Of a stretch of 64,000 nt of DNA, positions 17,200 through 37,417 are shown one piece after another (position 1 is the first letter of the stretch; each line of letters starts with the position of its first letter). Position numbers and translations under genes: made by a program. This DNA comes from a virus (Duplodnaviria; Caudoviricetes): IMG/VR virus record IMGVR_UViG_3300020577_010873, positions 9,989 to 73,988 of that record. The stretch is one strand, 5' to 3'. The notes under the pieces are model-generated. The model made no database searches, was not told the origin of the DNA, and saw nothing but the letters and a program-made list of their open reading frames with translations.

Positions 17200-17222
17200 G
17201 GGCGAGAGTCAACGCCCACTCG

Positions 17223-17256
17223 GTTGCAAAAGCAATACGCGCGTTGCATTTGCAAG
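17223..17256. promoter_or_regulatory. Tandem imperfect palindromes (GTTGCAAAAGCAAT, GTTGCATTTGCAAG) in the divergent FN3/portal spacer
   Basis: 17223-17236 and 17243-17256, 20 bp apart; same consensus GTTGCAWWTGCAAC as 24603 and 39183. Confidence 0.5.
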
Positions 17257-17278
17257 CAGAAAGTGCTTGCCTGTTCCC

Positions 17279-21122: not shown

Positions 21123-21197
21123 TGGAAGCGGGTGCTGGAATCGAACCAGCGACTTGCGCCTTATGAGGGCGCCCATCTGCCACTGATGTAACCCGCC
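21123..21197 (-). tRNA. tRNA with CAT anticodon (probably elongator Met; Ile2 not excluded)
   Basis: Full cloverleaf: GGCGGGT/ACCCGCT acceptor, GCGCC-CTCATAA-GGCGC anticodon arm, GGTTCGATTCC T-arm, encoded CCA. Lacks initiator features. Confidence 0.9.
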
Positions 21198-21228: not shown

Positions 21229-22263
21229 TCAACAGCGATTGAGCACGAGGTGGCCTTTGACCAGCCTCTTGTCCGACCGGAGGTACGCCTTGTAGAAGCC
21301 GCGGTCGAACACCAGATTGTACTCCACCCGCAGCCGTCCGACGCTCCCGGCCTCCGTCACGGTGAAGCTCAGGATCGCCCCGCCCACCTCCATCCGAAGC
21401 CGCTTCTTCCGCGCGAACACCGTCTGGTCCTGAAACCCCGGCATGTTGATCACGTGGACGTTTCGGTCGACCATGTAGTTCGAGACGTGGTAGTGGCCTT
21501 GCACGAGGATCTGCGGCTTCTCACCTCCACCCAAGGACTCGACCTGCTTCTGACCCGCGTATGATCTTGCGTAGGCTGCCCCTCCGCCTGGGTGTTGCAC
21601 CTTGATCCGGACGATCCCGTGCTTTGTCGTCACGTCCACGTCAGCCTCGACGTGGCCGAGGTAGCGGAGGTCCGATCGTCCGGACTTCTCGGCCAACCCC
21701 TGGAGGTAGGCGCCGAAGTTGAACCCCTCCTTCTGCCACCACCCCTCGTGATCGTCCCCGGTGATAAAGTGCGTGGTGATGCCCTTCCTAGCCGGGTAGT
21801 TGTCCACCACGTACAGGGCTTGGTCGTCGATGCCAGAGACGATCACCGAGGCACCGTTGATCCGCGGGATGTAGCCGTCGACGATGTTGCCCGCGTGGAG
21901 GACGGTCGTGATTCCCTCGGCGGCGAACAGGTCGTACTGCGCGTGAAGCGCGTCCAGGCGTTGCTCTTTGCAGCACAGGTGGGTGTCGGCCACGAGTCCG
22001 ATGTGGATCCACTCGCCGTGCCGCAGGAATTTCAGCGGGAGGTATCCGAACTCCGGCTTCTCCAGCGAAAGGAACGCACCATTGGAGAACACCTTGGTCT
22101 CCTTCTCCAGCAGCCGGAGTGCCGCGGTGAGCGTCCGGGAGTCGCACCCCAGGCCAGCCTCCAGCGATGCGGGCGTGCATGGGCCCTTCGACAGCGCACG
22201 CTTGAGCAGGGGAAGGATGTCCTTGGCCGTCCGCTTCTTCGGCAGGAGGTCGTCGATTCTCAT
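21229..22263 (-). CDS. Calcineurin-like metallophosphoesterase with N-terminal winged-helix-like domain
   Basis: VADTH, HAGNIVDG, TGDDHE, QHP and QGHYH metal motifs; start re-assigned to ATG 22263 (ATGA coupling). Confidence 0.85.
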   Translation of the reverse strand: MRIDDLLPKKRTAKDILPLLKRALSKGPCTPASLEAGLGCDSRTLTAALRLLEKETKVFSNGAFLSLEKPEFGYLPLKFLRHGEWIHIGLVADTHLCCKEQRLDALHAQYDLFAAEGITTVLHAGNIVDGYIPRINGASVIVSGIDDQALYVVDNYPARKGITTHFITGDDHEGWWQKEGFNFGAYLQGLAEKSGRSDLRYLGHVEADVDVTTKHGIVRIKVQHPGGGAAYARSYAGQKQVESLGGGEKPQILVQGHYHVSNYMVDRNVHVINMPGFQDQTVFARKKRLRMEVGGAILSFTVTEAGSVGRLRVEYNLVFDRGFYKAYLRSDKRLVKGHLVLNRC

Positions 22264-22550
22264 TCGGACCCCTTCTTCGCGCTGGCGATTGTGGCCTTCG
22301 ATCCCCACCACCACCGGCCTCGGTGCCTGATCCGATTTCCCTCCAGCAACTTGTGCGTCCGGCCCTCGTTGAACCTCGAAACGGCGTACCCCACGCGGTT
22401 GCGAAGCTCCTCCGAGTTGACGACGTTCCCCCTTGTAACCTTCTCCGCCGCCTCGGCGATCCGCTTCACCACTTCCGGAATCACTCCGGCAAGCACGTCA
22501 TCGAGTTTGAGTTCCGTAGGGTTTGGTTTGGTCTTCGATGGTTTTGACAT
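22260..22550 (-). CDS. Hypothetical protein
   Basis: 96 aa; GGAGG upstream; coupled to the phosphoesterase gene. Confidence 0.6.
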   Translation of the reverse strand: MSKPSKTKPNPTELKLDDVLAGVIPEVVKRIAEAAEKVTRGNVVNSEELRNRVGYAVSRFNEGRTHKLLEGNRIRHRGRWWWGSKATIASAKKGSE

Positions 22551-22686: not shown

Positions 22687-23810
22687 CAGATGTTCCCGAT
22701 GCCGATTCCGCTGCCAGAGCTTCCGCAGCCTTCGCAGGCGATCCGAAGGATCGTGCCGGCGGTGGCGTGGACGTTCCCGGTGACGGAATCGAAAAACATG
22801 CACGGGCTGGCGGAAGACTGAAGTACGTCCCAGGCCGTGCGCGGCTGGTGACACCACGAGTAGACGAGGTCGCTCTCGTTCAGCGGCGTGACCACAGCGA
22901 CGTGGATGCCAGCGTTCTTCGCCGCCGTGCAGGCGGAGAGCACGCTCGGGCTGCACCGACTCTCGCCTCCCGTGCTGAAGACCACGATGGCCTTGCGCAC
23001 GCCCGTTCGCCCCGTCTGGTGCATCGCGTACGCCTGCATGATCGCCTTGCCCGGGTCGTCCGAACCTCCGGGGAACGGCATGATCGAATCAGACCACCCG
23101 GCGACTCCGGCAAAGGCGATGCGGTCGGTTCCGGTGCGCGTTCCAATGCTCGGCCTCGTGGGGTTTCCCGACTGGGTCCACCCGGACAGCAGGTCGAACG
23201 CTTGGTTGTCCCGCAGGTCCATCGACAACTGGAGGGACAGGATGGCCTGTGGATACTGGTTGGCCACGGACGACCGGAGTTCGCGAAGTGCCCGGCCGCG
23301 GATGACGTTCACTCCTCGGGCTACCGATACAATTCCAGCCACCCACTCCGATCCGTTATCCGCCACGACCACCACGTCCCACGGCTGGCTGGCGGCGCAG
23401 ACGTTGTCGAACACCGATACCGTTGCTGTGGCCAGCAGCCCACGCCATGTTCCGGTCATTCCGGAGGTTCCAACGTCCAGACCACGCACCAGACCGCCAC
23501 CCGCCGAGCTCGCCACCACGCCGTTCTCGACTTTGAACGTCCCCTGGCCGGTGACGTCCGCCACCCGCCCGTCGGAGAATGTGGCGACCAGCCGGACGTA
23601 CGATGACCGTCCCTTCGCCACATCGACGAAGGGCGGCATGATGTCCAGTTGGACGATCTCCAACTGGCCGCACGTGTCTTGATGGTCGATAGCGTAGAGC
23701 GGGTTCTGGCACGATGAGTACCAGTCTCCGCAAGAGCCGGCCGTCGGAATATGCGCGTTCCCGTGGTCGGTCAGTATGGCGTCGCCGGGTGTGGTGGGTG
23801 GGCAGATCAT
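22686..23810 (-). CDS. Ig-like (Big_2) + von Willebrand A-like domain protein
   Basis: RLVATFSDGRVADVT...GVVASSAGGGLVRGLDVGTSGMTGTW (Big_2); DVVVVADNGS...RKAIVVFSTGGE...GIHVAVV (VWA-like). Start at ATG 23810 (TGATG). Confidence 0.7.
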   Translation of the reverse strand: MICPPTTPGDAILTDHGNAHIPTAGSCGDWYSSCQNPLYAIDHQDTCGQLEIVQLDIMPPFVDVAKGRSSYVRLVATFSDGRVADVTGQGTFKVENGVVASSAGGGLVRGLDVGTSGMTGTWRGLLATATVSVFDNVCAASQPWDVVVVADNGSEWVAGIVSVARGVNVIRGRALRELRSSVANQYPQAILSLQLSMDLRDNQAFDLLSGWTQSGNPTRPSIGTRTGTDRIAFAGVAGWSDSIMPFPGGSDDPGKAIMQAYAMHQTGRTGVRKAIVVFSTGGESRCSPSVLSACTAAKNAGIHVAVVTPLNESDLVYSWCHQPRTAWDVLQSSASPCMFFDSVTGNVHATAGTILRIACEGCGSSGSGIGIGNI

Positions 23811-24205
23811 CAGGATTTCCGGTTCCTCGCCAGTTCGTCGGTGAGGTTGTTGATGGCGTTGATCGAGTTTTTCAGGTCTTCCCGCGCCCCGTCGTGCAGC
23901 AACTTCAGTTGCGCCGCGTGGTCCTCGTCCTGCTTCCGCTGGTCGTCCTTGGACTGGATGGCGTACTTGATGAACTCCCGGGCCAGCCACCCGAGCGTGC
24001 CAATGGACGTCAGGGTGACGACCAGCAGAAGGTACTCGATGCTCTTTCCCTGGAGCGTTTCCGCCGCCTTCTCAGCAGCCGGAATCGGTACTTGCGCCAG
24101 AAGATGAGCCGCCTCAGCCCTCGTCCCTAGAAGCACGAGGGCCGAGATGGCGATAGCCAAGGCCGCGTTGAACATCACACGTAGTCTCAGTGGGGCGGTT
24201 TTCAT
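23810..24205 (-). CDS. Holin-like membrane protein
   Basis: Two hydrophobic segments followed by a charged coiled-coil tail; function inferred from topology only. Confidence 0.5.
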   Translation of the reverse strand: MKTAPLRLRVMFNAALAIAISALVLLGTRAEAAHLLAQVPIPAAEKAAETLQGKSIEYLLLVVTLTSIGTLGWLAREFIKYAIQSKDDQRKQDEDHAAQLKLLHDGAREDLKNSINAINNLTDELARNRKS

Positions 24206-24561
24206 TTTGCGATAACGCTAACTTTTAGTCTCGTCATCGGAGCACTCGTCACGACTCCCGACGGGACAGCGAAATGGGCCGGGTCCGAGATCGGCCCGTA
24301 GAGTCCCAGGAAGTTTCGGGGCGTGACGCGTGCGACGAGAGTGGCTCCGACGACCAGTTGGTTCGACGGCAGTTTGATTTCCGAAACGCCATTGGTGACG
24401 GCCGGTAGCGTGATCCAGTTCGTTGCGGCCAGCGTGGGTTTCCACTCCACGCGGTACTCCGTCACCTGTTCTTCCGCTGGCGACTTGTCCCACGTGACGA
24501 ACACATCGAGCGCAGATGCGCTGTATGCAAGAGCGACGATTGATGCAGCGAAAATCTTCAT
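24202..24561 (-). CDS. Signal-peptide FN3-like beta-sandwich protein
   Basis: MKIFAASIVALAYSASA|LDVFVTWDKSP...TEYRVEW...ARVTPRNFLG; start re-assigned to ATG 24561. Confidence 0.65.
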   Translation of the reverse strand: MKIFAASIVALAYSASALDVFVTWDKSPAEEQVTEYRVEWKPTLAATNWITLPAVTNGVSEIKLPSNQLVVGATLVARVTPRNFLGLYGPISDPAHFAVPSGVVTSAPMTRLKVSVIAK

Positions 24562-24602
24562 CGAAGTGTTATAAGTGGCTTTTTGTAGGACGACCCATCC
24601 CA

Positions 24603-24616
24603 GTTGCCTTTGCAAC
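24603..24616. promoter_or_regulatory. Imperfect palindrome GTTGCCTTTGCAAC
   Basis: One mismatch to GTTGCAWWTGCAAC; lies in an AT-richer spacer 42 bp upstream of the 24561 start. Confidence 0.5.
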
Positions 24617-24664
24617 CGCATAGATAGGACGCGAGTACCAACAGAACTACTATGGCTTGCTTCT

Positions 24665-25213
24665 TCACGGGTGTAGTATTTTATCGGACTGCTCCCTTGT
24701 CAGTACACCAATGGACACCGCCAACTCCATAAACGCCACTGTGTCTGAATTGTTATTTTTAACAGTAACGGCAAGCTGCGACTGTCGTATAGCCTTTCGA
24801 ACGAGTGCTCGAATCTCGTTCGGAAGTTCGACATTAACCGATGCGGCGTCCATTCGGTCCCATGCACCCGGAGCATTTGTCTCGACGTTGTTGTAGAACT
24901 CCAAGGCCGACCACTCATGTTCGGATTCAAGCCTATCTCTCTCTTTGTTCCACGCTTCTTTTGCGGATGATAGAGCGACCAAAATATTCGTGTGCTCCTC
25001 AATCGTTAACACCTTCCAGTCTCCCTGCTCTGGCAACGCATTCGTATCCGGAAGCTTCGATGTTGCGGACCTGATTGTCAGGTATGGCCAATTAGTCGGG
25101 CATCCCTTCTTAAACTCAGTAGTATTTGCGGAACCATGTGTGAGCACAAAAACGAATTGCGCGTTTGCGCTCAGACAGAACACCAAAGCCACAATTACCA
25201 TGATAGTTTTCAT
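24665..25213 (-). CDS. Signal-peptide protein; C-terminus resembles tail-fibre assembly chaperones
   Basis: MKTIMVIVALVFCLSANA|Q; C-terminal ...ELAVSIGVLTREQSDKIL; directly follows the fibre gene; visibly lower GC. Confidence 0.6.
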   Translation of the reverse strand: MKTIMVIVALVFCLSANAQFVFVLTHGSANTTEFKKGCPTNWPYLTIRSATSKLPDTNALPEQGDWKVLTIEEHTNILVALSSAKEAWNKERDRLESEHEWSALEFYNNVETNAPGAWDRMDAASVNVELPNEIRALVRKAIRQSQLAVTVKNNNSDTVAFMELAVSIGVLTREQSDKILHP

Positions 25214-26601
25214 CGTGCCGGGGTGTAGAATTGTTCGATGTGAACGTAGTCGATCTCCATAAGGTCCGCGTTTGCACCGACGGTGGACTCGATAACGATT
25301 CGAGTCCCAGTTCCACGCGCTGCACCGAGCGGAATTCCCGTCGTAATCGTGGCCTGCAAGGTCCCATCGACGAAGAAGTACGCGTACCCCAAAAACCCGT
25401 CGACTTGGACTTCAAGCTTTTGCCACGCGGTTGCCGACGGCCCGACGATTAGGTTGGAGGATTGGAGGGAGGAGTTCGAATATACCTTCGCCACCCAGTT
25501 ACCCGAATTGACGTTGTCCGTGTACTCGAAGTACGCGCCGTCCGTCGCGTTTCCCGCTGTGGCGTCGTAAAACCCACACCGAGCAATGTACCGATCCGTA
25601 CCGTTCGACAGCACCGGAAGCCGGGCGCGAAATTCGAATTTGCTGAAGTTGTTAGTTCCAAACACAATAGAGTCAGTAGAAGTAGCACCTAACTGCAATC
25701 GATTGTTCCCCGTAGCCGTGGTTCCAGTCGACAACCGGACAATCCCACACGCGTTCGTTTCGGACGCCACGATTGACGCACCGGAGCCAGATCCGTTGGC
25801 CGTCGTGACGATCGGCCCCGTGGTCGGCAACGCCGCCCAATTGAGATCGTCGTAGTAGTCGTAGAATTTGTTCGGCTCGGTCAACACCGGATAAGCCACC
25901 GAGTTGGTGATGGACCACGCGATGTACTGAGTTCCGGCAATGTTGGTAACGGCCTGGCCAATGACGTAACCGCCCCCACTGGCCGGGAAGTTCGTGGCGT
26001 ACCCCTCGATATCCCCGTTGCCGTTGATCACGAACCGAAGGCCCCCCGTGGTCGCCGACGGCGCATTTGTCAGCCGGGCCGGTTGCTGCATGGTGCCGTT
26101 GACCACCAGGTTGGTGCCAAGGCCGCGCGCGTTCAGCGCTGTGATCACGGCCGCGTCCATTTTGTTGCTCGATACCGCGTTCGACTTGAGAGCGAACGTC
26201 AGGTTGGTTCCGGTGAGCGTTCCATCGATCTCCGCCGTGTCGGCTACGTTGACCGTCGCACCGTACGTCCCGTCGACGGACACCACCGTTCCTGAGTTCG
26301 TGGATGGCGGAGACGAGCTACCACCGGCAGACACTAGCTTCCATTGTCCACCTCCGATGGCGTCGAAGATGTCGGTGTTGTTGGTCGCCCCCCATGACGC
26401 GGCGTGCGTGGCAATCCGCGCGGACGAGTCTCCTGCCGCGTTCTCTCCCAACACGATAGTCGTCTGGTTCGTCGATGGGCGGATCGACAAAAGGCCGTTG
26501 GTCCCTCGCAGGGTGTTGGCCACCGACATCGGCCGCAACGCCTGGGCCGCGACGATCAGTCCAATGAACAGGAACAGTACGATGATGATGAGGCGTTTCA
26601 T
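25210..26601 (-). CDS. Tail fibre-like protein with signal peptide and C-terminal lectin-like beta domain
   Basis: MKRLIIIVLFLFIGLIVAA|Q; tailspike-type N-terminal module; Thr/Asn/Gly-rich shaft. Start re-assigned to ATG 26601. Confidence 0.7.
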   Translation of the reverse strand: MKRLIIIVLFLFIGLIVAAQALRPMSVANTLRGTNGLLSIRPSTNQTTIVLGENAAGDSSARIATHAASWGATNNTDIFDAIGGGQWKLVSAGGSSSPPSTNSGTVVSVDGTYGATVNVADTAEIDGTLTGTNLTFALKSNAVSSNKMDAAVITALNARGLGTNLVVNGTMQQPARLTNAPSATTGGLRFVINGNGDIEGYATNFPASGGGYVIGQAVTNIAGTQYIAWSITNSVAYPVLTEPNKFYDYYDDLNWAALPTTGPIVTTANGSGSGASIVASETNACGIVRLSTGTTATGNNRLQLGATSTDSIVFGTNNFSKFEFRARLPVLSNGTDRYIARCGFYDATAGNATDGAYFEYTDNVNSGNWVAKVYSNSSLQSSNLIVGPSATAWQKLEVQVDGFLGYAYFFVDGTLQATITTGIPLGAARGTGTRIVIESTVGANADLMEIDYVHIEQFYTPAR

Positions 26602-26602
26602 C

Positions 26603-29600
26603 TCAGTACCTTTGGAGGAGAGCAGCACGGCAAGTGAAGTCGATGGGCTGACCCACGTTGTTCTGGAACGTCAGGTCGACCGCGTTCGACACCGTCGTAT
26701 TCAGCGTGCCAGAGACGGTTGGGTTCTCGCGGGCCGGCATTAGCGGAGTTCCGGCGACGCTGTAGTTGTAGTCCAGTCGACCTCCGACCGATACCGCGGC
26801 GGATGAGCCGGCGGTCTTGACCGTCAGATACACCACGGTGTTCCACTCCCAACCTGTCGGCTGCCACGAATCCGCGTCGTGAATGGTGAAGCTCACGGTC
26901 AGTCCACCGAATTTCGCTCGCACCACTCCGCCATCCCAGTTGGCCGGAGGAGCGGTGAACACCCCTGACGCCTCCAGCTTGTAGATCGACCCGGTGGTCA
27001 TGCTGTTCGCCGGAAGAGTCTTGCTCTCGCCCACCCGCACCGCGCTGATCACAGTCGTCTCGGCCGACGTTCCTGTGTCGACCGTCACGTCCGAGGCGGA
27101 ACCGAAGACCACTGGACTGCTGGCCCCGATGTAGAGCGTACCGCTGTTGGTTCGAAGGATGATTCCGGGGTCGGCCAGGATGTTGGTGAAGGCGAAGGTC
27201 GTGGATGGCGTGACCGGAACCCACGCCCCGTTCTGGCGACCATAGGTGATGCCGTTCGTCAGTGCGTCGGTCACGACCCACGAGCCGTTGATCCGCATCT
27301 TCTTATCCAGAATGTACCAGTCGACGGACGACACGTCGTTCTGTAGGCGCTTGGCCGTCATCCAGAAGAACGTGGGGGATCCGGAGTCGGATGGAACTTC
27401 GAAGTTGAAGTCGGTGTACCCGTGGTCCAGAAGGCCGCTGGCGGTTGAAATACCCCACCGCTTGGAAATAGCCGGAGCGTCGGCGGAGTAGAACCATAGG
27501 GTCGGTCGTCCCATGTCGGCCCTGCGGTCGATCGTGACGCCGTGGAACGTGTTCCATCCCGTCATGTCGTTGTCCGTCGTGAGCCCTGCCTTGCCGTCCA
27601 AAGCAGCCTGTAGGCCGGTGGTGTCGGCGATCACGTGCGTGTGGTTGGTGACGGACGCTCCGATTTGAGTCCGGAAGTCCGCCGCGGTCATCTTGCTGAT
27701 CGCGAACCCCGACTCGTCGATCACCAAAGGCTTGAGGTTCACGCCGGGCGTCACCACAGGAAGGTCGTAGGCGAACAGGCCAGCGGTGGAGGTCAGGCCC
27801 TCGGCACTCAAACCCTCGGTCGCGATGAGCGAATAGCTGACCGTGTCGTCCAGAACCGTCTGGAGGCCGGTGATCGCTCCAATGCCAGGGCGCGTCCAGG
27901 CGTTGTTGTACCGGACGTACCACTTACTGTCCGCCGGGGCGTCGGGGATGCCGTTGGTCGGGCTGGGTGTGCTGGGAATCGTGGTGAACGCCCCAAGGCC
28001 GTTGAGCCACGTGTTCGAGCTTCCTGCACCAGTCCCAATCCGGTTGATGTCCAAGATGCCACTGACGATGTTGCTCGCCGCGTGCGTGTGGTCTCCCGTC
28101 GCCACGTTCAGCGCCCCGGCGTAGAGCACGCCCGTCGATGTGTCGCGCTTCACCTTCTGGACGTTGTTGCTGATGGTGATGGACAGCGGTGTGTCGACGT
28201 TGAGCGCCGGAGCCTCGACTCGGAATCGGCCATCACCGATTTCCATGGTGTCCAGACCGATCGACCAAGACTTCGAGTTCCCGTTGAATGCCACGATCTT
28301 GGTGTTCAGGTTCGAGATGGTTGCAGATATAGCGTCCCCGGCGTCGAGCGAGTCGATGCGAGTGAACGCGATGGACTTCCAAGAGTTCGTCGGCTCCAGG
28401 CCGGCTTGGGTCGTCCAGTCAGGAACGACCTGGGCAGCAACGATCGAGTTCAGGTCGGCGAACGGTTGGAAGTCGAAGTACGCCTTCTCCGAACCGATGT
28501 TGCGCACGACCCGGACGTGACCAATGGGATTGCCCGTGCCAGCCGCGTACGCCCAGTTGCGCGTCATCACGATCTGCGCGTCGCTGTAGTTCATTCCGAC
28601 GTTGAACTCGGCGGAGGACGATGAGTAACCGCCTCCCGAGCCAATGGTAATCCGAGCGGAACCGCGGGTGCCGAAACCGATGGGGTTCAATTCGGCCACA
28701 CGATACCAATTCGTCGACTGCAACCCACTGACGGTTGACACGCGAGTACCGATGTCTGGAGCCGCCCATTTCCGTCCGTCGTAGAAGGCCGGAAGCTTGT
28801 CCAGCGAGTCCCAAATGGTCTGTCCGCGGTCGGGCGTGCTTACGATCTGGTCCGCGTTCTCCGAGTGCAGGTAGAGAGGGCGGTAGAGTTTGAACGCACC
28901 GCTAACGCCGCCCGACAGCATGTTCTCCCACACCACGCCGTCCGGCGCCGTCTTGTTCAGCAGCAGAGGGCTTTCGGTTTGGGTGACGTGGTTCGCCGCC
29001 AGGAACGTGTTCGTCGACTCGCTGAGATCAATGCCGCCGCGGAAATTGTGAATGCGGTTGGCCACCACCATGTTTCCGCTCAGGGCGCCAGGAGGGTAGT
29101 TCGTGGAGTAACGACCGAACCGAATGCCGCGCCCGACACCGTTCGTGGTCGATCCGTCAGGCCCGGGACTGCGGATGATGTTCCCGATGATCGTCGAGTC
29201 CGACACTGGGTTCCAAAACCAGATTCCGTACTGCACTGCCTCCAGGGTGTTGTTGATGATCGACATGCCCTGACTCATGAAGCAGGAGATTCCGATCGTC
29301 CCGAAACCACTGGTGCCGGACGTGGTGCCGTTCAACCCCCAGTTGGTGGACAGCAGGAACTCGTTGCCGGAGATAAGGCAGTTCGCCGCCTCGACCGTGG
29401 TGTCGATGAAGTGGCGGATACGTCCACCGTTGAACTTGTTTCCGATCACGCGGTGGTTTCGGCCGTACAAGCTGATGCACGAATACTGCTCCATCACCCC
29501 CGACACATCCACCCAGCCGGTGTTCTGCACCGACCCGTTGAAGCTGTTGGTGAAGGTGTTCCCGATGAACAGCCCACCCGAACCGCTGGCCTTGATGCAC

Positions 29601-30568
29601 CGCTTGCCGATGTCTTCGAAGAAGCAATGGCTGACCTCGACGTTCGCGTCGTCGTAGGTCCAGAGCGAATCGGTCCACCGAATTGCATCCGAGTCCTCTC
29701 CCGGCAGGATGCGCTTGAAATTGCAGTTGTGAATGAGGATCCGCTTCGGCTTACCCGGGTATGTGAATGGTAGCCGGTTGATGTAAATGCCGTGGGCGAA
29801 ACCAGTGCCGGGTGCGGGGTTCCCGATGATCCCGTCCGGCTGGGAGTAGATGTCGACGAAGTTGCAGTCCTCGATCGTCGCATGCGTGTCGCCGTGGATT
29901 GAAATGGCAATCGCCGTGATCTTGTTCGTGAACTCCTGAAGGTTGGTGAAGGTGCAGCTTTGAGCAACGAACCGCTCCACCCCATCGGCCAAGTCCACGG
30001 CGCGATGGGACGTCCGGCGCCCGTCGAACTTGATGCCCTGGATTCGCACCGAACTGCTCGCCACTTGGAGCATGTTCGTCAGCGACGCCGGGTCCTGAAG
30101 GATCGTCACTCCGTCACCGAAGATGTTCTTGGGACGGGTGACGTGGAGGTGCGTGATCAGGTTGGTCCCGCGCAACTGGAGTCCGAAGGACGGCCAGTCC
30201 AAAGCCGCCTGGATCGCAGCCGTGTCGTCCGTCACGCCATCGCCCTTCGCCCCCCACCATGCCGCGTCCTGAACTGGAGCTCTTCGGTCAGGAAACACCC
30301 ATCGCCCGCCGTCGCGGCATGGGAAGACGTTCCCGGTGTTCGTCCCATCGGTGGACGTGCGGTCCCACTCAACCAGACGGTCCTGCCCCCAATCTCCGGA
30401 CGCCTCACGTCCGCCCACGGAGTACGTGATCTTCCCAGCCGTGGCGAACGCCGTGGGCTTAAGCATCAGCAACTCGCCAAGGGTGTCGACGCGCCGCTGA
30501 GGGCCCTGGGCGTAGGAGGACAAACCGGCAAGCAGCACTGTCCAGCAAAGTATTGCCCATCGGATCAT
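26603..30568 (-). CDS. Tailspike/depolymerase (pectate-lyase-like beta-helix + fibre repeats) with signal peptide
   Basis: WWGAKGDGVTDDTAAIQAAL beta-helix entry motif and IxNCxF repeats; fibre motifs HTHVIADTTGLQAALDGKA and DAPADSKWYVRYNNAW; N-terminus MIRWAILCWTVLLAGLSSYA|Q. Confidence 0.85.
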   Translation of the reverse strand: MIRWAILCWTVLLAGLSSYAQGPQRRVDTLGELLMLKPTAFATAGKITYSVGGREASGDWGQDRLVEWDRTSTDGTNTGNVFPCRDGGRWVFPDRRAPVQDAAWWGAKGDGVTDDTAAIQAALDWPSFGLQLRGTNLITHLHVTRPKNIFGDGVTILQDPASLTNMLQVASSSVRIQGIKFDGRRTSHRAVDLADGVERFVAQSCTFTNLQEFTNKITAIAISIHGDTHATIEDCNFVDIYSQPDGIIGNPAPGTGFAHGIYINRLPFTYPGKPKRILIHNCNFKRILPGEDSDAIRWTDSLWTYDDANVEVSHCFFEDIGKRCIKASGSGGLFIGNTFTNSFNGSVQNTGWVDVSGVMEQYSCISLYGRNHRVIGNKFNGGRIRHFIDTTVEAANCLISGNEFLLSTNWGLNGTTSGTSGFGTIGISCFMSQGMSIINNTLEAVQYGIWFWNPVSDSTIIGNIIRSPGPDGSTTNGVGRGIRFGRYSTNYPPGALSGNMVVANRIHNFRGGIDLSESTNTFLAANHVTQTESPLLLNKTAPDGVVWENMLSGGVSGAFKLYRPLYLHSENADQIVSTPDRGQTIWDSLDKLPAFYDGRKWAAPDIGTRVSTVSGLQSTNWYRVAELNPIGFGTRGSARITIGSGGGYSSSSAEFNVGMNYSDAQIVMTRNWAYAAGTGNPIGHVRVVRNIGSEKAYFDFQPFADLNSIVAAQVVPDWTTQAGLEPTNSWKSIAFTRIDSLDAGDAISATISNLNTKIVAFNGNSKSWSIGLDTMEIGDGRFRVEAPALNVDTPLSITISNNVQKVKRDTSTGVLYAGALNVATGDHTHAASNIVSGILDINRIGTGAGSSNTWLNGLGAFTTIPSTPSPTNGIPDAPADSKWYVRYNNAWTRPGIGAITGLQTVLDDTVSYSLIATEGLSAEGLTSTAGLFAYDLPVVTPGVNLKPLVIDESGFAISKMTAADFRTQIGASVTNHTHVIADTTGLQAALDGKAGLTTDNDMTGWNTFHGVTIDRRADMGRPTLWFYSADAPAISKRWGISTASGLLDHGYTDFNFEVPSDSGSPTFFWMTAKRLQNDVSSVDWYILDKKMRINGSWVVTDALTNGITYGRQNGAWVPVTPSTTFAFTNILADPGIILRTNSGTLYIGASSPVVFGSASDVTVDTGTSAETTVISAVRVGESKTLPANSMTTGSIYKLEASGVFTAPPANWDGGVVRAKFGGLTVSFTIHDADSWQPTGWEWNTVVYLTVKTAGSSAAVSVGGRLDYNYSVAGTPLMPARENPTVSGTLNTTVSNAVDLTFQNNVGQPIDFTCRAALLQRY

Positions 30569-32637
30569 ACAAAACCCTCCCGCTTGTAGTGGATGCCCGC
30601 GGCGTTCACGACGTTGTCCACCCCGTCATGGACCGTCGAAGTGTCGTCCCGCTTGAAGATCGTCGTCTGCTTGCGCGAGTCGAAGGCCAGCACCCAGGCG
30701 CAGGAGACGCGGCTCTTGGTCAGGTCGGCGTAGGTTGGGAACCCGATGACCGCGCTTGCCTGATAGCTCTCCTCGCCCGATGGCGGAGGAGCGATCACAT
30801 CCGATCCACCCTCGCGCACGAACGTGCGGTAGATCACCCGCCCAAGGACGGTCATGCGGACGTCCGTCCCGTTCGGGATCACCGCAGGGTCCGTCACGGT
30901 CGACCACTCGCTGATGATACCGTCACCCGGATCCCAGTTGGTGACGCGAGCCTTCTGCCAACTCTTGGTGCTCGCCAGCATCTCATCCCGGCTTGAGAAC
31001 TCCTCGAACTGCGAGACCGTGGGCGGCGTCCCTGGAGTCGGACCGACCGGAATGCTCGGACCTAGCTCGTCCGTCTTCGTCACGGTGTCGCGGACCGTCC
31101 CGTCGGTGTCGATGAACTTCCACACCGCGCTGGTGCTCGTGGCGTCGACCATGAGGAACCCGAAGTCTGTGATTCGAACCTCCGACCCTGCCTCGGGCGT
31201 CGCCTCAAACCCGTCCTGCGGGGAACCGCCTCCGGTCCCAACGACGAAATGCAGGCGGTTCAAGAACGTCCCGCGCTCGTAGTTGTGGCTGTGGCCGGAG
31301 AGTACGGCGTTGACCTCCATGTTCGAGGCCCACCGCTGGGACACCACTCCAGGGGCGTACCGCTCGCCCGAGGTGTACGGCGCGTGATGCAGGCACAGGA
31401 ACTTCCAGCGGGCGCAGCTTCGGGCGACGATCGACTGGAGCGCCACCCACTGCGGAGCCCCGGCGAAGTTCCCATCCGTCTCCACCACGGTTCCAGCGGT
31501 GTTGATCCCGCTGTTGGCGATCACCAGCGTTACCGGACCGAGTTCGACAGAGAAGTATCGTCCGTTCCCGGGGTTGCCCACCGCTTCGGAGACGGTGGTC
31601 AGGCCAAGGTCCAAGTCGTGATTCCCCAGGGCCACGACCAGCTTGTGGGCGTCGATGAACGTCTGGTACGGAGCCAGCGCGGACTCGACCGTCGCCGGAC
31701 TGTATACCGCGTCCCCCAGGAGAACCACGTAGTCCGGGTTCTGCGCGATCACCGCAGCCGCAACCGCCTGGGCGCCGGCATTGGCCGTCCCGGTGTCTCC
31801 GACGAAGCAGATGCGAGTGGACGTTCGAACCTCCGGGGCGTCCGCCGGAGGATTGGCCGTGAAGTTGATCTCCGCCGCCGCGGCTTCAGAATCGTCCGGA
31901 ATGTCGCCGTTGATCTGGTTCTCGCGGTCGCACGCGATGATCTGCTCAGCGTGTTCCTCTCGGAAACTCCGCTCCCGCGTCTGGAGATCGGGCGATGCGA
32001 AGTCCCGGCCGTACTCCATGGTCAGCCAGAGTCGGATCAGCCGCTTGAACGCCGGGTCATCCGGAACGAGGTCGGTGTCGCGCCACTCCTTTTTGATGCC
32101 CCGCCACTCCACAACCAGCTTCTCGGTCGACTGCAACCACGGACCGACGATGAGCCGTTGGGTGTGCGGGTCGATGGAGTAGACTCCGCCGCCGGCACGC
32201 CCACCCGGACTGTCGAGCGTCGCCGACGGCTGAATGAAACCCTGGTCTCCCGAAGTGATGTTGTTGTTCCGGTAGACCCATCGGGCGTTGCGCCGGAACT
32301 TCGCCATCCACCTACGGAGCGTCGGCAGCGTGACCGGCGTGTACGGGACAGCCGCGTCCCACCCGCCGGCCTCTGACCCAATGGTGTAGACCCGCAGGAT
32401 CTCTCCCGCGGGCTTGGTCAGAACGCTCGCCCCGTTCTGGAACATGAGCGAGCACGATGGGTAGACGTCAATATGCCGCTGCTGGTAGCAGGGGATGTGA
32501 CGCTGGAGCACGAACATGCCTTCGGCCAGACGGTCGGCCAAAAGCGTCAGCAGATTCTCAGGTGGACCCTGGGGAAATGCCGAGCCAGTGGCGTCGGTCG
32601 TCCCGATCACCGAGGCTTTGAGTTCGGCGAAGTTCAT
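30565..32637 (-). CDS. Putative head-tail adaptor fused to a purple-acid-phosphatase-type metallophosphoesterase and two tailspike-type modules
   Basis: Phosphatase motifs GDTG, GDAVY, GNHD, HH, GHSHNYER (31070-31820). The N-terminal ~250 aa are adaptor-like by position and pattern (weaker). Confidence 0.75.
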   Translation of the reverse strand: MNFAELKASVIGTTDATGSAFPQGPPENLLTLLADRLAEGMFVLQRHIPCYQQRHIDVYPSCSLMFQNGASVLTKPAGEILRVYTIGSEAGGWDAAVPYTPVTLPTLRRWMAKFRRNARWVYRNNNITSGDQGFIQPSATLDSPGGRAGGGVYSIDPHTQRLIVGPWLQSTEKLVVEWRGIKKEWRDTDLVPDDPAFKRLIRLWLTMEYGRDFASPDLQTRERSFREEHAEQIIACDRENQINGDIPDDSEAAAAEINFTANPPADAPEVRTSTRICFVGDTGTANAGAQAVAAAVIAQNPDYVVLLGDAVYSPATVESALAPYQTFIDAHKLVVALGNHDLDLGLTTVSEAVGNPGNGRYFSVELGPVTLVIANSGINTAGTVVETDGNFAGAPQWVALQSIVARSCARWKFLCLHHAPYTSGERYAPGVVSQRWASNMEVNAVLSGHSHNYERGTFLNRLHFVVGTGGGSPQDGFEATPEAGSEVRITDFGFLMVDATSTSAVWKFIDTDGTVRDTVTKTDELGPSIPVGPTPGTPPTVSQFEEFSSRDEMLASTKSWQKARVTNWDPGDGIISEWSTVTDPAVIPNGTDVRMTVLGRVIYRTFVREGGSDVIAPPPSGEESYQASAVIGFPTYADLTKSRVSCAWVLAFDSRKQTTIFKRDDTSTVHDGVDNVVNAAGIHYKREGFV

Positions 32638-33081
32638 TCACGGCTGGGCGCCGGAGCGCCGACGAAGGGGAGGCGCAGCGGATTGATCCGCGGGAGTAGC
32701 CGCAGGAGCGGGTGGAGCATCAGCCGCCGCAGCAGGAGCCGCGGGTTCGGACGATTGTTGGGGCGCTGGTGTGAGCCGGGGGGCGTGCAATGTATCGGAA
32801 GCTGTGGTCGGACCCCCCAGGGACTCCCGCGTCTTGGGAACCCACCGACCCACCCTTTTTTCGAGGTCTCCGTATTCCGCTTCACCGATGGCAGTGATCT
32901 CGCCGCCGATGTGCTCTTTGATGCAGGTCTCCAGGCAGGCGATGTGCAGCGCCTCCTCGGCCTTCGCCTCGTCCAACGCGAGGATGCCGATGGCGTCGCC
33001 GATGCGCTGCCACTTCAGCGTCTTGCACGACTTCGAACAGTACGGACGAATGTCTGGGGTCTTGGTCTGAAAATACTTCAT
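32638..33081 (-). CDS. Hypothetical head-module protein with Pro/Ala-rich tail
   Basis: Start re-assigned to ATG 33081 (MKYFQTKTP); abuts the adaptor start. Confidence 0.6.
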   Translation of the reverse strand: MKYFQTKTPDIRPYCSKSCKTLKWQRIGDAIGILALDEAKAEEALHIACLETCIKEHIGGEITAIGEAEYGDLEKRVGRWVPKTRESLGGPTTASDTLHAPRLTPAPQQSSEPAAPAAAADAPPAPAATPADQSAAPPLRRRSGAQP

Positions 33082-33109
33082 GGCTCGGGTGTTGAGGTTA
33101 TGGGAAGGA

Positions 33110-33139
33110 CGCACCTCCGGCGGTTAAACCGGAGGTGCG
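33110..33139 (-). terminator. Hairpin after the capsid and next gene
   Basis: 11-bp stem CGCACCTCCGG/CCGGAGGTGCG with an 8-nt loop; weak U-tract. Confidence 0.55.
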
Positions 33140-33153
33140 CAAGACCGATGGCC

Positions 33154-33675
33154 TTACGGGTACGAGGTGTAGGGCCAAGTCAGCGCCCAAGGCTGCTTGC
33201 CCGCCACCCGAACCGTGAGGTTGGTGACGTAGTTCGTGGCGCTCGACGTGTACCCACCGAACAGCAGGTAGGCCGCACCACCCGTGTTGATGTTGGTTCC
33301 CCATGCCCGCGGAGATGTTCCACTGAATGTCAGAACAAGCGTGGTAAACGCCGTGGTCTCCGCCGTAACACCGTCGATCGAGCGGTAGACCGGAACGCTG
33401 AGCGTGGCAGCCGCCGGGTTGGTGTACATCAGGGCCGCGCCGATCTGGACGTACACGTCGGTGTGGCGACTGACGTCCACGAACTCGGTGTTGTTCGACA
33501 CGCCGGTAACGCCGAACGATCCACTGATGACCGACGGAACGTTGGTCAGTGTGATCGGCGTGTAGGGCGTCAGGACGGTCTTCACGCCTCCGCGCACCTG
33601 GGGGATGCACAGAGCGAGCAGAGCCAGCACGCCCAGGAGCAGCCCTCCGATCTTGAAACGAGTCTTCGTATTCAT
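33154..33675 (-). CDS. Beta-rich protein with hydrophobic N-terminal leader (possible capsid decoration protein)
   Basis: Immediately downstream of the capsid gene; MNTKTRFKIGGLLLGVLALLALCIPQVRG leader. Confidence 0.6.
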   Translation of the reverse strand: MNTKTRFKIGGLLLGVLALLALCIPQVRGGVKTVLTPYTPITLTNVPSVISGSFGVTGVSNNTEFVDVSRHTDVYVQIGAALMYTNPAAATLSVPVYRSIDGVTAETTAFTTLVLTFSGTSPRAWGTNINTGGAAYLLFGGYTSSATNYVTNLTVRVAGKQPWALTWPYTSYP

Positions 33676-33717: not shown

Positions 33718-35484
33718 TTACGGAGCGGCCACGCCGGAGACGAGGCGCTTGTAGTTGCCGATGACGATGGAGTTCAGAGGGCACTCCACGACCGCGGTGG
33801 TGATCTGCGAAGTCAGCGTCCGCTTGATCGTCGGGTTTTCCATCACGCAGGAGAACGAGGAGTCGACGCGCGACAGGTCGTTGATCTCGCCCACCGTGTA
33901 CTGCTTCCGGTTCGAACCGAGCATGCCGGGGTAGATCGACCCGCCGTTGCCCCAGTCGCACACCCACAGGTAGTTTCCGAGGGACTCCAGGCCGGAGGCG
34001 AAGGCGTTCGCGAAGTCGTCGAGAGCGGGGTCGGTGATGAAGTTCACCGTCACGCCCTGCGGCTTGTACAAGCGGAACTTGGTGTAGGGGAAGCCCCACT
34101 CGTTCTGCCCGAACTCAGGCTGATTGATGCGGACGATGTCGCCCGTGATGTCCTTCGAGTAGGCGACGAACGCACGCTGGAACTCCAGGGCGGCGTTGGA
34201 CGTGCCCCACACGTCGACCTCGGCCGCGTTCTTGCCCTGACCTTTGCGGGCTCGGACGATGTCGTAGATCGTGTTTTCGAGGAACGTGTTGATCGGGAAG
34301 TCCTGATTCGCCACGTCCGTGAACCGGCCGCAGTCCTTCAGTTGCGGCAGCACGCCGATCATGTTCGCCCGGTAGAACATGGCCTGACCGCCAGTACCGG
34401 GATCTACCGAGGCACCAGAGAGTGACGTGATCGCGTCGAGCGAACCCCAGTTGTCGAGGTTCTGCTTGTTCGAGATGCGCTCGCCAAAGAGGAAGGCGTG
34501 GATCCACTCCGCCCGCTGGCGCACCTCGTCCTGCCGGTTGCGCTCCGCCTGCGGCAAGTCTTGGAAGATCTTGAAATACTCGTTGTTGGTCGCCAAGTGC
34601 TGGAACACCTTCTCGTACTCCGACCCGGTGGAGCGGGCGTTGCGGAAGAACTGATACCAGAACGGAACACGCTTCTCCGTGTTCACGTTGATCATGTTCC
34701 GGCACCACTGCTCGACATCGTGAATGTTGTTGATTCCCAACAGCACGAGACCCGTGGTGGCGGTGGCGTTGGGAGGGAACGAGGCGTTGGCCAAAGTTCC
34801 GCCCTCGGACTGGGACGCCGGCTGGTCAAGCGTTACTTCCACGTCGAGCGTGACGTCCGTATTGCGGGCGGCGTACACGATCTTGAACTGAGTCAGTTGG
34901 AACGCCCCGGTGCTGGCGTTGCGGCTGATCACGTGGATGCGCTTGTCCGGAAGGAAATAGTCGGGGTGCAGGTTCATCGTCCCGGCGTAGGACGACTGGA
35001 CGGTCAAGCAGCGGTTGTTGGATCCGATGGACCGGCTGCCGGCGGTCAGACCAGGGCCGGCGGTGGCATCGCCGTAGGTCTTGGACGTGTCGAGCGGCGT
35101 GTAGGCGTCGCCCTTGACGTTGCCCGTGAGTTGCCAGTGGTTTACCTGTGTTTCCCACAGGGACTTCTGTCGACCCAAGATGTACGGGCGCACCAGGGAC
35201 GGGCCGCGATCGACCCGCTCGGGGGTAATCAGGTGGCCCATCGGCCGGGCGCTGGACATCAGCCAGTCCCACAATCCGGATCGAGGGATTCCGCACTGGG
35301 CCATCTCGATCTGGTGCTTGAAGAAAGCCTGGAACTCGTTCCACACGTCGGTCGTGGTGTTCCGGAACAGGGCCTCCATCTGAGCCGGGGACAGGCGAGA
35401 AATCTTCGCCTTCGTGACGGTCCCGACCGTGTCGTAGTTGTTTCGCGCCGCCACCTCGCACGCGGTGTAAAATCCAGATGCCAT
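33718..35484 (-). CDS. Major capsid protein (large, with insertion domain)
   Basis: 588 aa from ATG 35484; VPFWYQFFRNARSTG and GERISN patterns of HK97-fold capsids; followed by a small gene and a hairpin. Confidence 0.65.
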   Translation of the reverse strand: MASGFYTACEVAARNNYDTVGTVTKAKISRLSPAQMEALFRNTTTDVWNEFQAFFKHQIEMAQCGIPRSGLWDWLMSSARPMGHLITPERVDRGPSLVRPYILGRQKSLWETQVNHWQLTGNVKGDAYTPLDTSKTYGDATAGPGLTAGSRSIGSNNRCLTVQSSYAGTMNLHPDYFLPDKRIHVISRNASTGAFQLTQFKIVYAARNTDVTLDVEVTLDQPASQSEGGTLANASFPPNATATTGLVLLGINNIHDVEQWCRNMINVNTEKRVPFWYQFFRNARSTGSEYEKVFQHLATNNEYFKIFQDLPQAERNRQDEVRQRAEWIHAFLFGERISNKQNLDNWGSLDAITSLSGASVDPGTGGQAMFYRANMIGVLPQLKDCGRFTDVANQDFPINTFLENTIYDIVRARKGQGKNAAEVDVWGTSNAALEFQRAFVAYSKDITGDIVRINQPEFGQNEWGFPYTKFRLYKPQGVTVNFITDPALDDFANAFASGLESLGNYLWVCDWGNGGSIYPGMLGSNRKQYTVGEINDLSRVDSSFSCVMENPTIKRTLTSQITTAVVECPLNSIVIGNYKRLVSGVAAP

Positions 35485-35618
35485 AATGAAGAACAGCGTA
35501 CGCGGTACGCGTGCGGTCTCCACATGACGTTTCTTGCACCCAACGCGCATTGTATTGCGCGAAGGGCGTAAAGAGTGGCGGCTTCCTTTTGGGCGCCTAT
35601 CGTGGTTTGATTCTGCTG

Positions 35619-35834
35619 ATGAAGACTGTCCTTCCCGCGTCCGCCGCTTCCGCCCTGGGCTTGGCTGTGGTGGGCGACGAAATCGAGCTTACGGTGTCCG
35701 CGGTGAACCCCGACGGTTCGGTCGAGGTGGAGTCCTACGCCGACACTCCGGCGGAAGATGCGGCTACGTCGTCCGAGCCGCCGAAAGCGATTGGACCGGC
35801 GGACCTACCGATGCCTCCCATGACCTACGCGTAA
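35619..35834 (+). CDS. Small acidic hypothetical protein, antisense between capsid and terminase
   Basis: MKTVLPASAASALGLAVVGDEIELTVSAVNPDGSVEVE...; fills the gap; 10-bp convergent overlap with terL. Confidence 0.5.
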   Translation: MKTVLPASAASALGLAVVGDEIELTVSAVNPDGSVEVESYADTPAEDAATSSEPPKAIGPADLPMPPMTYA

Positions 35835-37417
35835 CCCACGCTGGCCTTCGAATGAGTCTCCGCCGTCTGCTTCCCCGACACGATTTCGTCCAGGGCGAAC
35901 ATCGAAATCGCGTAGCTCATGGCGTCCCACGCGTGCTTATGCTTCTGGCCCAACGCCACAGCCTCGTTGCGCGTCTCGCCTTTGCGCAGGCCGCGGAACA
36001 TATCCACGATGCCCTTGCAGTTGGCGCTTACGACGATCCGATTTTTCCGCAGCAGCATGGCCACGTAGTTCACGCGTTTCCGCACCCATCCCGGCCGCTT
36101 CACGTTCGCCGACCCTACGAGACTGATCCTCCCTTCGGACTCCCGGTACACCTCTGCGGCGTCGGTTAGCTCCGCGTCCTCCGGCAGATCCTTGCGCGAG
36201 ATCGCGGCCCTGAACTCGAAGGCGCTGCTGTCCGAGAAGTGGCGCCACGTGACGGGGAAGCCGGCGAACTTCTCCAGCGCATCCATCCGCTCCATCACCA
36301 TCTCGGTGAACTCCCCGATCGTCACCTCCTGCTTTACGCATACCACCTCGTCGAGAACGCGGAAGTGGACCTTGTCCCCCACGTAGACCGGCTGGATTGC
36401 CGCCCAGGCGTGGTTCACGTCGCCGAGGTCCCAGCCGCCGAGGAGAAGCGGAAGGCCACCGTCGACCTCGACGTTCATCCCGTTGTCCGGGGCCAACACC
36501 ACCCACTCGTTCTCGTCCCCGGACGAGATGTCCCCGAGGACGTGGGTGTTCGACCGGAAGGCGTTTCCGAACACGCCCTTGGTGGATCCGGCGATCCACT
36601 CGGACCCGATGTACCGGCGGTAGAGAATCGGGTCGTGCGCGTAGGTGGCAATCAGGTCCGCCTTTTGGTCCGGGTGGAGGTACGTGTTCGACTCGATGGG
36701 CATGCACATCCGCTCCATCTGTTCGATCACGCGCTTCTTCGCCGCGATCATCTCGGGCGTGAAGTGCTCCGGCCACTCGTTGTTCGTGGCCCACTCCATC
36801 TCCGTGAAGAACGGAGGGTACAGCCAATGATCTGGACCCTCGTCCGGAGGGTTCGTGTCGATCATCACCATGCGGTTCTCGAACGGGCAGGGACCGAACC
36901 GAAGCTGGGAAATCGCGGTGTCGAGAATCTGCCGGTTCTCCGCCATCTCCTCCGCATCGTCTCCTCGGTAAAGGTGCCCCTCGGAAATCCACACGCCACT
37001 CCAGACGGTGGACAGCAGCTTGTCCCGCGCCTCCTTCGCCTTCTCGATCGGGAACAGAACGAAGGTCGAGCGGGTGCCGTACTTGTTGAAAATCTGGCAC
37101 TGCTCGATCTTGCTGATGCTGTCGCGCCAGGGCTGACGCGCCCACCCGAAGTCCGCCTCGTTCGAACCGATGCCGGCGTTGTTCCAGATCCCGAACGTGC
37201 CCTCTGTGAACTCCGGCCAGATGCCGAAATTGCCCTGGCGGTTGGTGCGGGTGATGAAAGCCACGCGGGCCTCATTGTGCCACCCGTGGTGCATCCACGC
37301 CTGCTCGACACCGATGGTCTTTCCGGAGCATCGCGCCCCGTAGACCATGCGGATCCGCTTACGCTTCTCGTTGAGATACCACTGTCGTTGGAGGTCCGTC
37401 AGTGGGGGGAGCCACAC
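35825..37417 (-). CDS. terL: Terminase large subunit
   Basis: Walker A GARCSGKT, Walker B VWISE, motif DTNP; RNase H-like GWDLGD...DSSA...HAWDAMSY. Confidence 0.9.
   Translation of the reverse strand: MWLPPLTDLQRQWYLNEKRKRIRMVYGARCSGKTIGVEQAWMHHGWHNEARVAFITRTNRQGNFGIWPEFTEGTFGIWNNAGIGSNEADFGWARQPWRDSISKIEQCQIFNKYGTRSTFVLFPIEKAKEARDKLLSTVWSGVWISEGHLYRGDDAEEMAENRQILDTAISQLRFGPCPFENRMVMIDTNPPDEGPDHWLYPPFFTEMEWATNNEWPEHFTPEMIAAKKRVIEQMERMCMPIESNTYLHPDQKADLIATYAHDPILYRRYIGSEWIAGSTKGVFGNAFRSNTHVLGDISSGDENEWVVLAPDNGMNVEVDGGLPLLLGGWDLGDVNHAWAAIQPVYVGDKVHFRVLDEVVCVKQEVTIGEFTEMVMERMDALEKFAGFPVTWRHFSDSSAFEFRAAISRKDLPEDAELTDAAEVYRESEGRISLVGSANVKRPGWVRKRVNYVAMLLRKNRIVVSANCKGIVDMFRGLRKGETRNEAVALGQKHKHAWDAMSYAISMFALDEIVSGKQTAETHSKASVGYA

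Follow-up and report, generated by a model that had tools for sequence, protein, structure and literature searches.

The late operon of an uncultured temperate tailed phage (Duplodnaviria; Caudoviricetes), represented by IMG/VR virus record IMGVR_UViG_3300020577_010873, encodes a tailspike-like protein (P0004), a second fibre (P0003) and three smaller proteins (P0001, P0002 and P0005), all of which start with leaders that are probably real, functional Sec signals cleaved by signal peptidase I (Sec/SPI signals). The stretch analyzed, hereafter the window, consists of 64,000 nucleotides, bases 9989-73988 of the 73,988-bp record (record completeness, 69%; GC content, ~63%). The leaders are conserved in divergent homologs, and the spike and the second fibre have in common a module of ~75 amino acids (aa) located immediately after the leader. 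Textbook tailed-phage assembly is wholly cytoplasmic. The reading that we tentatively favor, with a probability of roughly 0.38, is that the five proteins undergo export and cleavage, fold in the periplasm and are attached to the phage particles at lysis.

Leaders and gene starts

The sequence-only reading of this DNA had reported Sec-type leaders on P0004, P0003, P0002, P0001 and P0005, three of them with Gln directly after the predicted cut. Translation confirms all five at the gene starts given in Table 1: MIRWAILCWTVLLAGLSSYA in P0004, MKRLIIIVLFLFIGLIVAA in P0003 and MKTIMVIVALVFCLSANA in P0002, each followed by Gln (Q21, Gln20 and Gln19, respectively), MKIFAASIVALAYSASA in P0001, followed by Leu, and MNTKTRFKIGGLLLGVLALLALCIPQVRG in P0005, followed by Gly. 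Every one of these leaders shows the Sec/SPI features, namely a charged n-region, an uncharged core of ~10-15 residues and small residues at positions -3 and -1; their hydrophobic stretches span only about 11-15 residues, as is typical of cleaved signals. K/R residues are present ahead of the hydrophobic core in each leader and, given that positive residues in this position stay inside while the rest is translocated (the positive-inside rule), the main part of all five proteins should be translocated. No C-terminal sorting domain of the type IX secretion system (Por_Secre_tail or the type B C-terminal domain) was detected in P0001-P0005 in a Pfam scan (E <= 0.01).

Leaders were called using our own heuristic for the n-, h- and c-regions and the -3/-1 positions or by manual reading, combined with conservation. 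The heuristic flags 7 of the ~90 open reading frames (ORFs) of the 74-kb contig, or 9 when P0001 and the ORF at 56746 are added. Four of these nine, P0004 to P0001, are consecutive, so that the clustering does not appear to be due to chance, and P0005 is a fifth.

The ATG codons of P0004 and P0002 each overlap the stop codon of the preceding gene (ATGA), and the ATG of P0003 lies 2 nt past the spike stop codon. A longer ORF for P0001, starting from 24621, is not supported because the alignment with the ortholog from the related contig L003 begins at the Met at 24561. The possibility, raised along with the original prediction, that the true starts lie downstream of the leaders is contradicted by the ATGA overlaps and the ortholog alignment, both of which support the starts that include the leaders.

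Conservation of the leaders

Conservation in homologs, proposed in the sequence-only reading as a check on the leaders, was found for the spike, P0005 and most of the P0002 family. All seven close homologs of the spike (7/7; 42-56% identity) have leaders that differ in sequence and are the same in character, and all these leaders end with Ala, Gly or Ser followed by Gln, with Q21 forming an invariant column. A profile built from spike residues 1 to ~820 was searched against 1.84 billion cluster representatives (50% identity) and yielded 361 proteins at E <= 0.001, of which the best 150 were listed and 149 were examined, P0010 being left out as a member of the profile. In 74 of these 149 matches, the alignment begins right at the N-terminus and in most cases covers only about the first 130 positions; a leader is present in 69-71 of these 74 representatives (69 above the strict hydrophobicity threshold and one more borderline); the same 74 include one with a Tat-like RRSF signal and one that is apparently a truncated call or a mis-called start. 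In the P0005 family, all 10 members carry a leader, with the leader sequence divergent among the nine homologs (45-92% identity). In the P0002 family, ~7 of the 10 whole members are leader-bearing; the three leaderless ones begin exactly at the mature domain. The small residues at -3/-1 and the Gln at +1 are kept while the hydrophobic core drifts.

The spike and the N-terminal module

The AlphaFold2 (AF2) model of residues 1-560 of P0004 (pLDDT 86, pTM 0.86) consists of a helix (residues 2-19), a small alpha/beta module (~21-99) and a long right-handed beta-helix. The best Foldseek match of this model is CBA120 TSP2 (E 2e-9), followed by Dettilon, Depo32, HK620 and phi92; exported bacterial beta-helix enzymes, namely AlgE epimerases, RbmB and WceF, are matched as well. 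Weak tailspike matches were obtained also with Pfam and PHROG, and the C-terminal part contains HxH and phage-tail-repeat (PTR) motifs, with Fibritin_C also among the Pfam motifs. The identification of this large protein as a tailspike with fibre motifs, already made from the sequence, is thus corroborated, and the structural model predicts a beta-helix of the tailspike type for P0004. Conservation of the spike extends over the first ~820 residues, and the remainder is swapped among relatives. A search of 185,579 species genomes with the spike alignment detected no relative, an observation that speaks against an enzyme borrowed from a host; a tblastn search of INPHARED with the spike produced weak beta-helix matches only.

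A hidden Markov model (HMM) of the N-module matches P0004 (E 2e-29) and, just after the leader, P0003 (E 8e-9), as well as a second small leader-bearing protein in relatives (L023_11979, L009_17251). P0004 and P0003 have both the leader and the ~75-aa N-module in common and then diverge. Such a common N-terminal part combined with variable distal parts is how virion receptor-binding proteins are usually organized. The cytoplasmic protein P0006, encoded directly upstream of the spike, was considered as a docking counterpart carrying the same module and was rejected (HMM E 2.5; hhalign probability 0.6%); the N-module is confined to P0004 and P0003.

The second fibre and the small leader-bearing proteins

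The C-terminal ~245 aa of P0003 show 39-50% identity to the C-terminal regions of the spikes from L006 and L003 and of a leaderless 502-aa fibre from L004. The latter has a different, classical-looking N-terminal domain in place of the leader, and the gene of the P0002 family located next to it is leaderless as well, with stop codons upstream. Thus, the leader state apparently switches for the pair together; this is what would be expected if the leader decides the compartment, in the one case available.

P0002 occupies the position expected of a fibre-assembly gene and shows 73% identity to L003_6692 and 38% identity to L003_5823. Members of its family, collected with an HMM, directly follow the spike in L003, L006 and L007 and the leaderless fibre in L004. 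P0002 has no Pfam or PHROG match, and ESM Atlas returned only unnamed viral clusters at <= 0.85. The label of putative chaperone that had been attached to this protein is positional only. In these searches P0002 showed no homology to a known Tfa or chaperone family, and its own family includes leaderless members. P0001, which has no Pfam match, looks FN3-like by its sequence pattern; it shows 71% identity to L003_7234.

P0005 is, as had been proposed, the post-capsid gene, given that the product of the upstream gene matches Crass_capsid/SU10_MCP clusters. Its AF2 model (pLDDT 76) contains a helix (residues 9-23) followed by 8 strands, with weak Foldseek matches (TM 0.3-0.46) to the TNF-like lectin BC2L-C, carbohydrate-binding modules and the lambda gpJ tip. 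Leader proteins are encoded after the capsid gene also in L003, L005 and L006, and homology of P0005 to these was considered and rejected, the hhalign scores being not significant; they are positional analogs only.

The cassette in relatives

Cassette-bearing relatives include L022 and L023, which represent the same lineage as the window; L003, L005, L006 and L007; L004, which has an SU10-type portal; L008, in which the head module encodes a lambda-like GpA, Portal_2 and ClpP; and L009. The cassette is accordingly found in the structural modules of at least four head types. In L022 and L023, the gene order is kept, that is, capsid, P0005-like, ~141-aa protein, P0006-like and the spike with leader and N-module, and L023 has four consecutive leader-bearing genes. 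The capsid protein, which probably starts at the Met at about 35484, shows 75% identity to the L022 ortholog and 50% identity to that from L023; the respective values for P0006 are 68% and 52%. In L003-L008, the spike cassette is followed by a lipoprotein, small membrane proteins and then the tail genes.

The region 24200-26400, from P0001 to P0003, is a low-GC island (0.55 vs 0.63; the GC content at the third codon positions of P0002 is 0.54), and its products show 71-81% identity to those of genes of L003, a 53% GC contig in which a remnant of the P0003 C-terminus, 82 aa long, is also present. In BLASTP comparisons with L003-L006, the only genes in common with the window are those of the cassette. 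Taken together with the low-GC island, this cassette-only sharing implies that the cassette moves between phages, and the compositional and sequence data suggest a recent exchange of the fibre cassette. An additional leader-bearing protein, encoded outside the cluster (56746-57357), shows 76% identity to L003_7584, which is located within the spike cassette of L003.

Proposed export and late joining

If the favored reading is correct, P0004, P0003, P0002, P0001 and P0005 would be late proteins made as Sec preproteins and carried by their leaders through SecYEG. Signal peptidase I would cut directly behind the small residues at -3/-1; in P0004, P0003 and P0002, the cut would precede a Gln able to cyclize to pyroglutamate. 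The exported proteins would then fold in the periplasm. P0004 and P0003 would dock by their common N-module, and their distal parts would cut and bind surface glycan. The DNA-filled particles assembled in the cytoplasm would meet the spike and the fibre only once the holin-like protein encoded next to the cassette opens the inner membrane, or after lysis. Late joining is preferred here because the module is of a docking type with swapped tips, because the genes occupy a position in the virion operon, and by analogy with Cellulophaga phages that are discussed below. It is conceivable, and we suggest this with due reserve, that widespread tailed phages from several head-module lineages build their receptor-binding apparatus in the periplasm; such two-compartment virion assembly has not been described for Caudoviricetes.

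Several observations weigh against this reading. The spike consensus has Arg-Arg at mature positions +5/+6, and Arg-Arg near the mature start is unfavorable for export of Sec substrates in E. coli. No docking partner for the N-module was found in the searches of P0006 by HMM and hhalign. Disulfide bond formation, considered as a rationale for export, was rejected: the exported set contains 7.7 Cys per 1000 residues vs 13 per 1000 in the rest of the contig, and only C235 and C315 are invariant in the spike. O-glycosylation was rejected in the same manner, as the Bacteroidota sequons D-[ST]-[AILVMT] are not above composition-matched shuffles (p = 0.08 for P0004; mostly p ~0.5 for the homologs). 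The order of signal peptide, catalytic domain and binding domain is the standard layout of secreted bacterial glycan enzymes. In L004, a classical leaderless fibre is encoded beside the leader-bearing spike, and the spike could be an accessory enzyme there. Finally, the leader cluster is not homologous to the structural proteins of the Cellulophaga phages, the records of which are silent on cleavage, and detection of such proteins in phage phi18:3 could reflect secreted proteins that co-purify in the virion preparation.

Alternative readings

The main alternative, only slightly less probable than late joining, is that the proteins are exported and never become part of the virion, comprising instead a secreted glycan toolkit of the phage: a depolymerase with a targeting domain along with lectin-like and FN3-like helpers. 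Such a toolkit, acting within or around the infected cell, would strip or mask the capsule, exopolysaccharide (EPS) or receptor, and could free the progeny, prevent sticking to debris or exclude other phages. The succession of signal peptide, catalytic beta-helix, spacer and binding domain in P0004 is the layout of secreted carbohydrate-active enzymes. The exported proteins among the Foldseek matches (WceF of Pantoea, 6tgf; RbmB of Vibrio cholerae; AlgE epimerases) are compatible with this interpretation, and so is the weak resemblance of P0005 to lectins and carbohydrate-binding modules. The virion could be served by the leaderless classical fibre in L004, and a leaderless fibre-like gene (16132-17199) is present in the window as well. 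Furthermore, proteins of Porphyromonas phages that follow the Q-rule, with Gln exposed by the predicted cut, have been viewed as envelope modifiers (Matrishin et al. 2023; PMC10367356). However, a conserved N-module with swapped distal parts on two proteins of one phage follows the logic of receptor-binding proteins, and the genes lie between the capsid and tail genes in the late operon, with no sign of a separate transcription unit. The absence of relatives from the 185,579 species genomes speaks against a borrowed host enzyme, the fibre motifs Fibritin_C, PTR and HxH are phage-specific, and the analogous leader proteins of phi18:3 are recorded as structural proteins detected by mass spectrometry (MS).

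It appears unlikely that the N-termini are something other than cleaved export signals, either membrane anchors that tether the fibres to the inner membrane to aid assembly or to time lysis, comparable to a signal-anchor-release (SAR) domain, or segments removed or buried by different means. The adjacent holin-like gene, the Arg-Arg after the predicted cut and the fact that the phi18:3 record comes without mature N-termini would be compatible with such anchors. Nevertheless, conserved -3/-1 and +1 Gln residues next to a drifting core fit recognition by signal peptidase rather than a specific membrane helix, the core length is that of cleaved signals, and the positive-inside orientation would still place the protein body in the periplasm. 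That the leaders are an artefact of mis-called starts or chance hydrophobic N-termini is highly improbable: an alternative start is present upstream in both P0001 and P0003, but two starts are fixed by the ATGA overlaps, orthologs start at the same Met, independent gene calls on >80 homologs include the leader, and P0004 lacks an internal Met close to its mature start.

Operon setting and other features of the window

The leader cassette is embedded in the late part of a minus-strand operon (Table 1) that runs from the integrase through the 462-aa protein, the helix-turn-helix (HTH) protein, terminase, capsid, the leader genes and further virion-type genes to a 3651-aa ORF. The cassette is flanked by the capsid gene on one side and by a holin-like gene, directly downstream of P0001 and the leader cluster, on the other. 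No sigma-70-like promoter or terminator signals above shuffles were detected in the cassette region.

Table 1. Genes of the leader cassette and other annotated features of the window, with positions counted from the first base of the window
Feature	Position	Strand	Length (aa)	Remarks
Holin-like (or possibly spanin-like) protein	23810-24205	-	131	Two hydrophobic segments and a charged coiled-coil tail; putative role
P0001	24202-24561	-	119	Leader-bearing
P0002	24665-25213	-	182	Leader-bearing
P0003, second fibre	25210-26601	-	463	Leader, N-module as in P0004, Gly/Ser/Thr-rich shaft, C-terminal domain
P0004, tailspike-like protein	26603-30568	-	1321	Leader, residues 1-20 (30509-30568); N-module, 21-99; right-handed beta-helix, ~100-560; conserved middle to ~820; variable fibre-like C-terminal part
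P0006	30565-32637	-	690	Leaderless; N-terminal domain, calcineurin-like metallophosphatase (Pfam Metallophos, 9e-12), C-terminal domain
Gene between P0005 and P0006	32638-33081	-	~147	Missed by simple ORF ranking; conserved in the same position in L022 (141 aa) and L023 (144 aa)
P0005	33154-33675	-	173	Leader-bearing; directly after the capsid gene; mature part modeled as a jelly-roll beta-sandwich
Major capsid protein	33718-35550	-		ESM Atlas feature search, 0.98 to Crass_capsid/SU10_MCP clusters
Large terminase	35825-37417	-		phrog_2, 3e-13
462-aa protein, then HTH protein		-	462 (first)	Between integrase and large terminase
Integrase	39758-40819	-		Start of the minus-strand operon
RecT, exonuclease, DnaB	from 41.5 kb	+		
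Leader-bearing protein	56746-57357	+	203	7 Cys; outside the cluster

P0006 is joined to the downstream spike gene by the ATGA overlap, and its residues 535-686 match the 178-aa protein L023_7913, indicating that the C-terminal ~150 aa are a separate gene in L023. The structural operon encodes two calcineurin-like metallophosphatase domains, in P0006 and in the product of 21229-22314 (-), and a related domain is found at the end of an 825-aa tail-region protein in L005.

Farther along the late operon, the product of the gene at 16132-17199 (-) is fibre-like and leaderless, combines an FN3 domain with a glycine-rich domain at the C-terminus and is a candidate for the classical virion fibre of this phage. 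Next to it, 15802-16122 (-) encodes a 106-aa protein in which a twin-arginine motif (TRRGFIAAL) precedes a lipobox (AAVG, then Cys), a Tat-type lipoprotein among the tail genes. The 3651-aa ORF that closes the late operon (413-11368, -) contains no Cys, and neither does its 392-aa neighbor (11370-12548, -), compared with an average background of 13 Cys per 1000 residues elsewhere on the contig. Giant ORFs in the same position in relatives contain ART-PolyVal (L006) or show a faint match to RadC (L004), and the 3651-aa product is possibly a polyvalent protein that passes through the periplasm upon ejection.

A plus-strand island (17147-20967) interrupts the minus-strand late operon and encodes two proteins, one of 814 aa with no assigned function and the other of 459 aa, which contains DUF6734 and has PHROG matches that resemble glycosyltransferases or methyltransferases. 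This island, which is adjoined by a tRNA-Met gene (21123-21197, -), could be a moron or a defense/counter-defense insert. Further exported-looking proteins are encoded on the plus strand at 56121-56504, 56746-57357 and 61299-61802; one of these is a lipoprotein (LTPS, then Cys).

Host and relatives of the phage

The indications for a Bacteroidota host, hinted at in the sequence-only reading, are conflicting. The Q-rule, which is associated with Bacteroidota (PMC5837995), and the near-absence of Shine-Dalgarno sites are in its favor, whereas the 63% GC content and the lack of enrichment of the Bacteroidota -7 promoter motif TAnnTTTG (2 found vs 5.3 expected) are not. Throughout the window, gene starts have almost no Shine-Dalgarno site and are preceded by A/C-rich sequence, and the context 'ACC ATG AA' recurs. 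A search with DnaB for the host gave generic matches only (28-34% identity), and no prophage relative was found in the species genomes. A megablast search of INPHARED detected no close cultured relative of the phage, and a PDB sequence search and an IMG/VR pattern search for relatives returned nothing useful.

Implications

If receptor-binding proteins of tailed phages indeed pass through the periplasm, annotation of phage structural genes will change, given that signal peptides are now read as evidence against virion proteins. Expression of such proteins for structural studies or engineering may then need periplasmic folding and a processed N-terminus, and the coupling between lysis timing and infectivity would be seen differently. 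Even should the proteins be secreted without joining the virion, a mobile depolymerase and lectin cassette in the structural operon would constitute an unrecognized route of host-surface remodeling. The specific contributions of the window are the near-obligate coupling of the leader with the N-module, the presence of two N-module proteins in one phage, the mobility of the cassette across head types and the paired leader loss in L004. The leader-plus-N-module signature provides a simple marker that matches ~70 clusters at 50% identity.

Comparison with known systems

In line with the earlier view of an undescribed arrangement, the literature searches found no description of export signals on spikes or fibres of tailed phages. 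Phage late proteins that use the host Sec pathway before lysis are known among endolysins, both Sec-exported and SAR (Lys44 of Oenococcus phage fOg44 and Lyz of P1); in contrast to the role proposed for the products of the leader cluster, these act in lysis as peptidoglycan hydrolases and are neither receptor-binding nor virion proteins.

The known tailspike depolymerases (CBA120 TSP2, 5w6p/6w4q; Dettilon gp208, 6f7d; Klebsiella Depo32, 7vyv; the HK620 and P22 type) resemble P0004 in the combination of a right-handed parallel beta-helix with a variable distal region and in the location of the gene in the virion block. In contrast to P0004, in which a cleavable-looking Sec signal precedes the ~75-aa module, these proteins have no leader and start with a cytoplasmic particle-binding domain, and sequence identity with P0004 is only 10-15%. 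WceF of Pantoea stewartii (6tgf) and RbmB of Vibrio cholerae (9ozl) are similar to P0004 in the structure of the beta-helix and cut glycans outside the cytoplasm; they differ in being chromosomal biofilm/EPS genes, with no phage structural operon, fibre repeats or swapped receptor-binding tips.

In Porphyromonas gingivalis phages, genes of unassigned function encode Q-rule signal peptides, and signal peptides on the capsid proteins were attributed to the prohead protease (Matrishin et al. 2023; PMC10367356). As in the window, the predicted SPI cut exposes an N-terminal Gln, but tail parts are not named among these proteins.

A parallel is provided by Cellulophaga phages. In phi18:3 (KC821620), gp085-087 have leaders ending in Ser or Ala before Gln, are annotated in GenBank as 'structural protein' from experimental tandem mass spectrometry (MS/MS) proteomics analysis, a status that rests on the GenBank note, and are followed by membrane-protein genes and an endolysin; in phi46:3 (KC821622), gp079-083 are five consecutive leader genes. 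These phages differ from the window in belonging to Pachyviridae with a low-GC host, in the lack of detectable homology and in that the leaders are uncommented in the GenBank records. What they have in common with it are runs of late genes for fibre-like or pectate-lyase-like proteins with leaders that end in Ser or Ala immediately before Gln.

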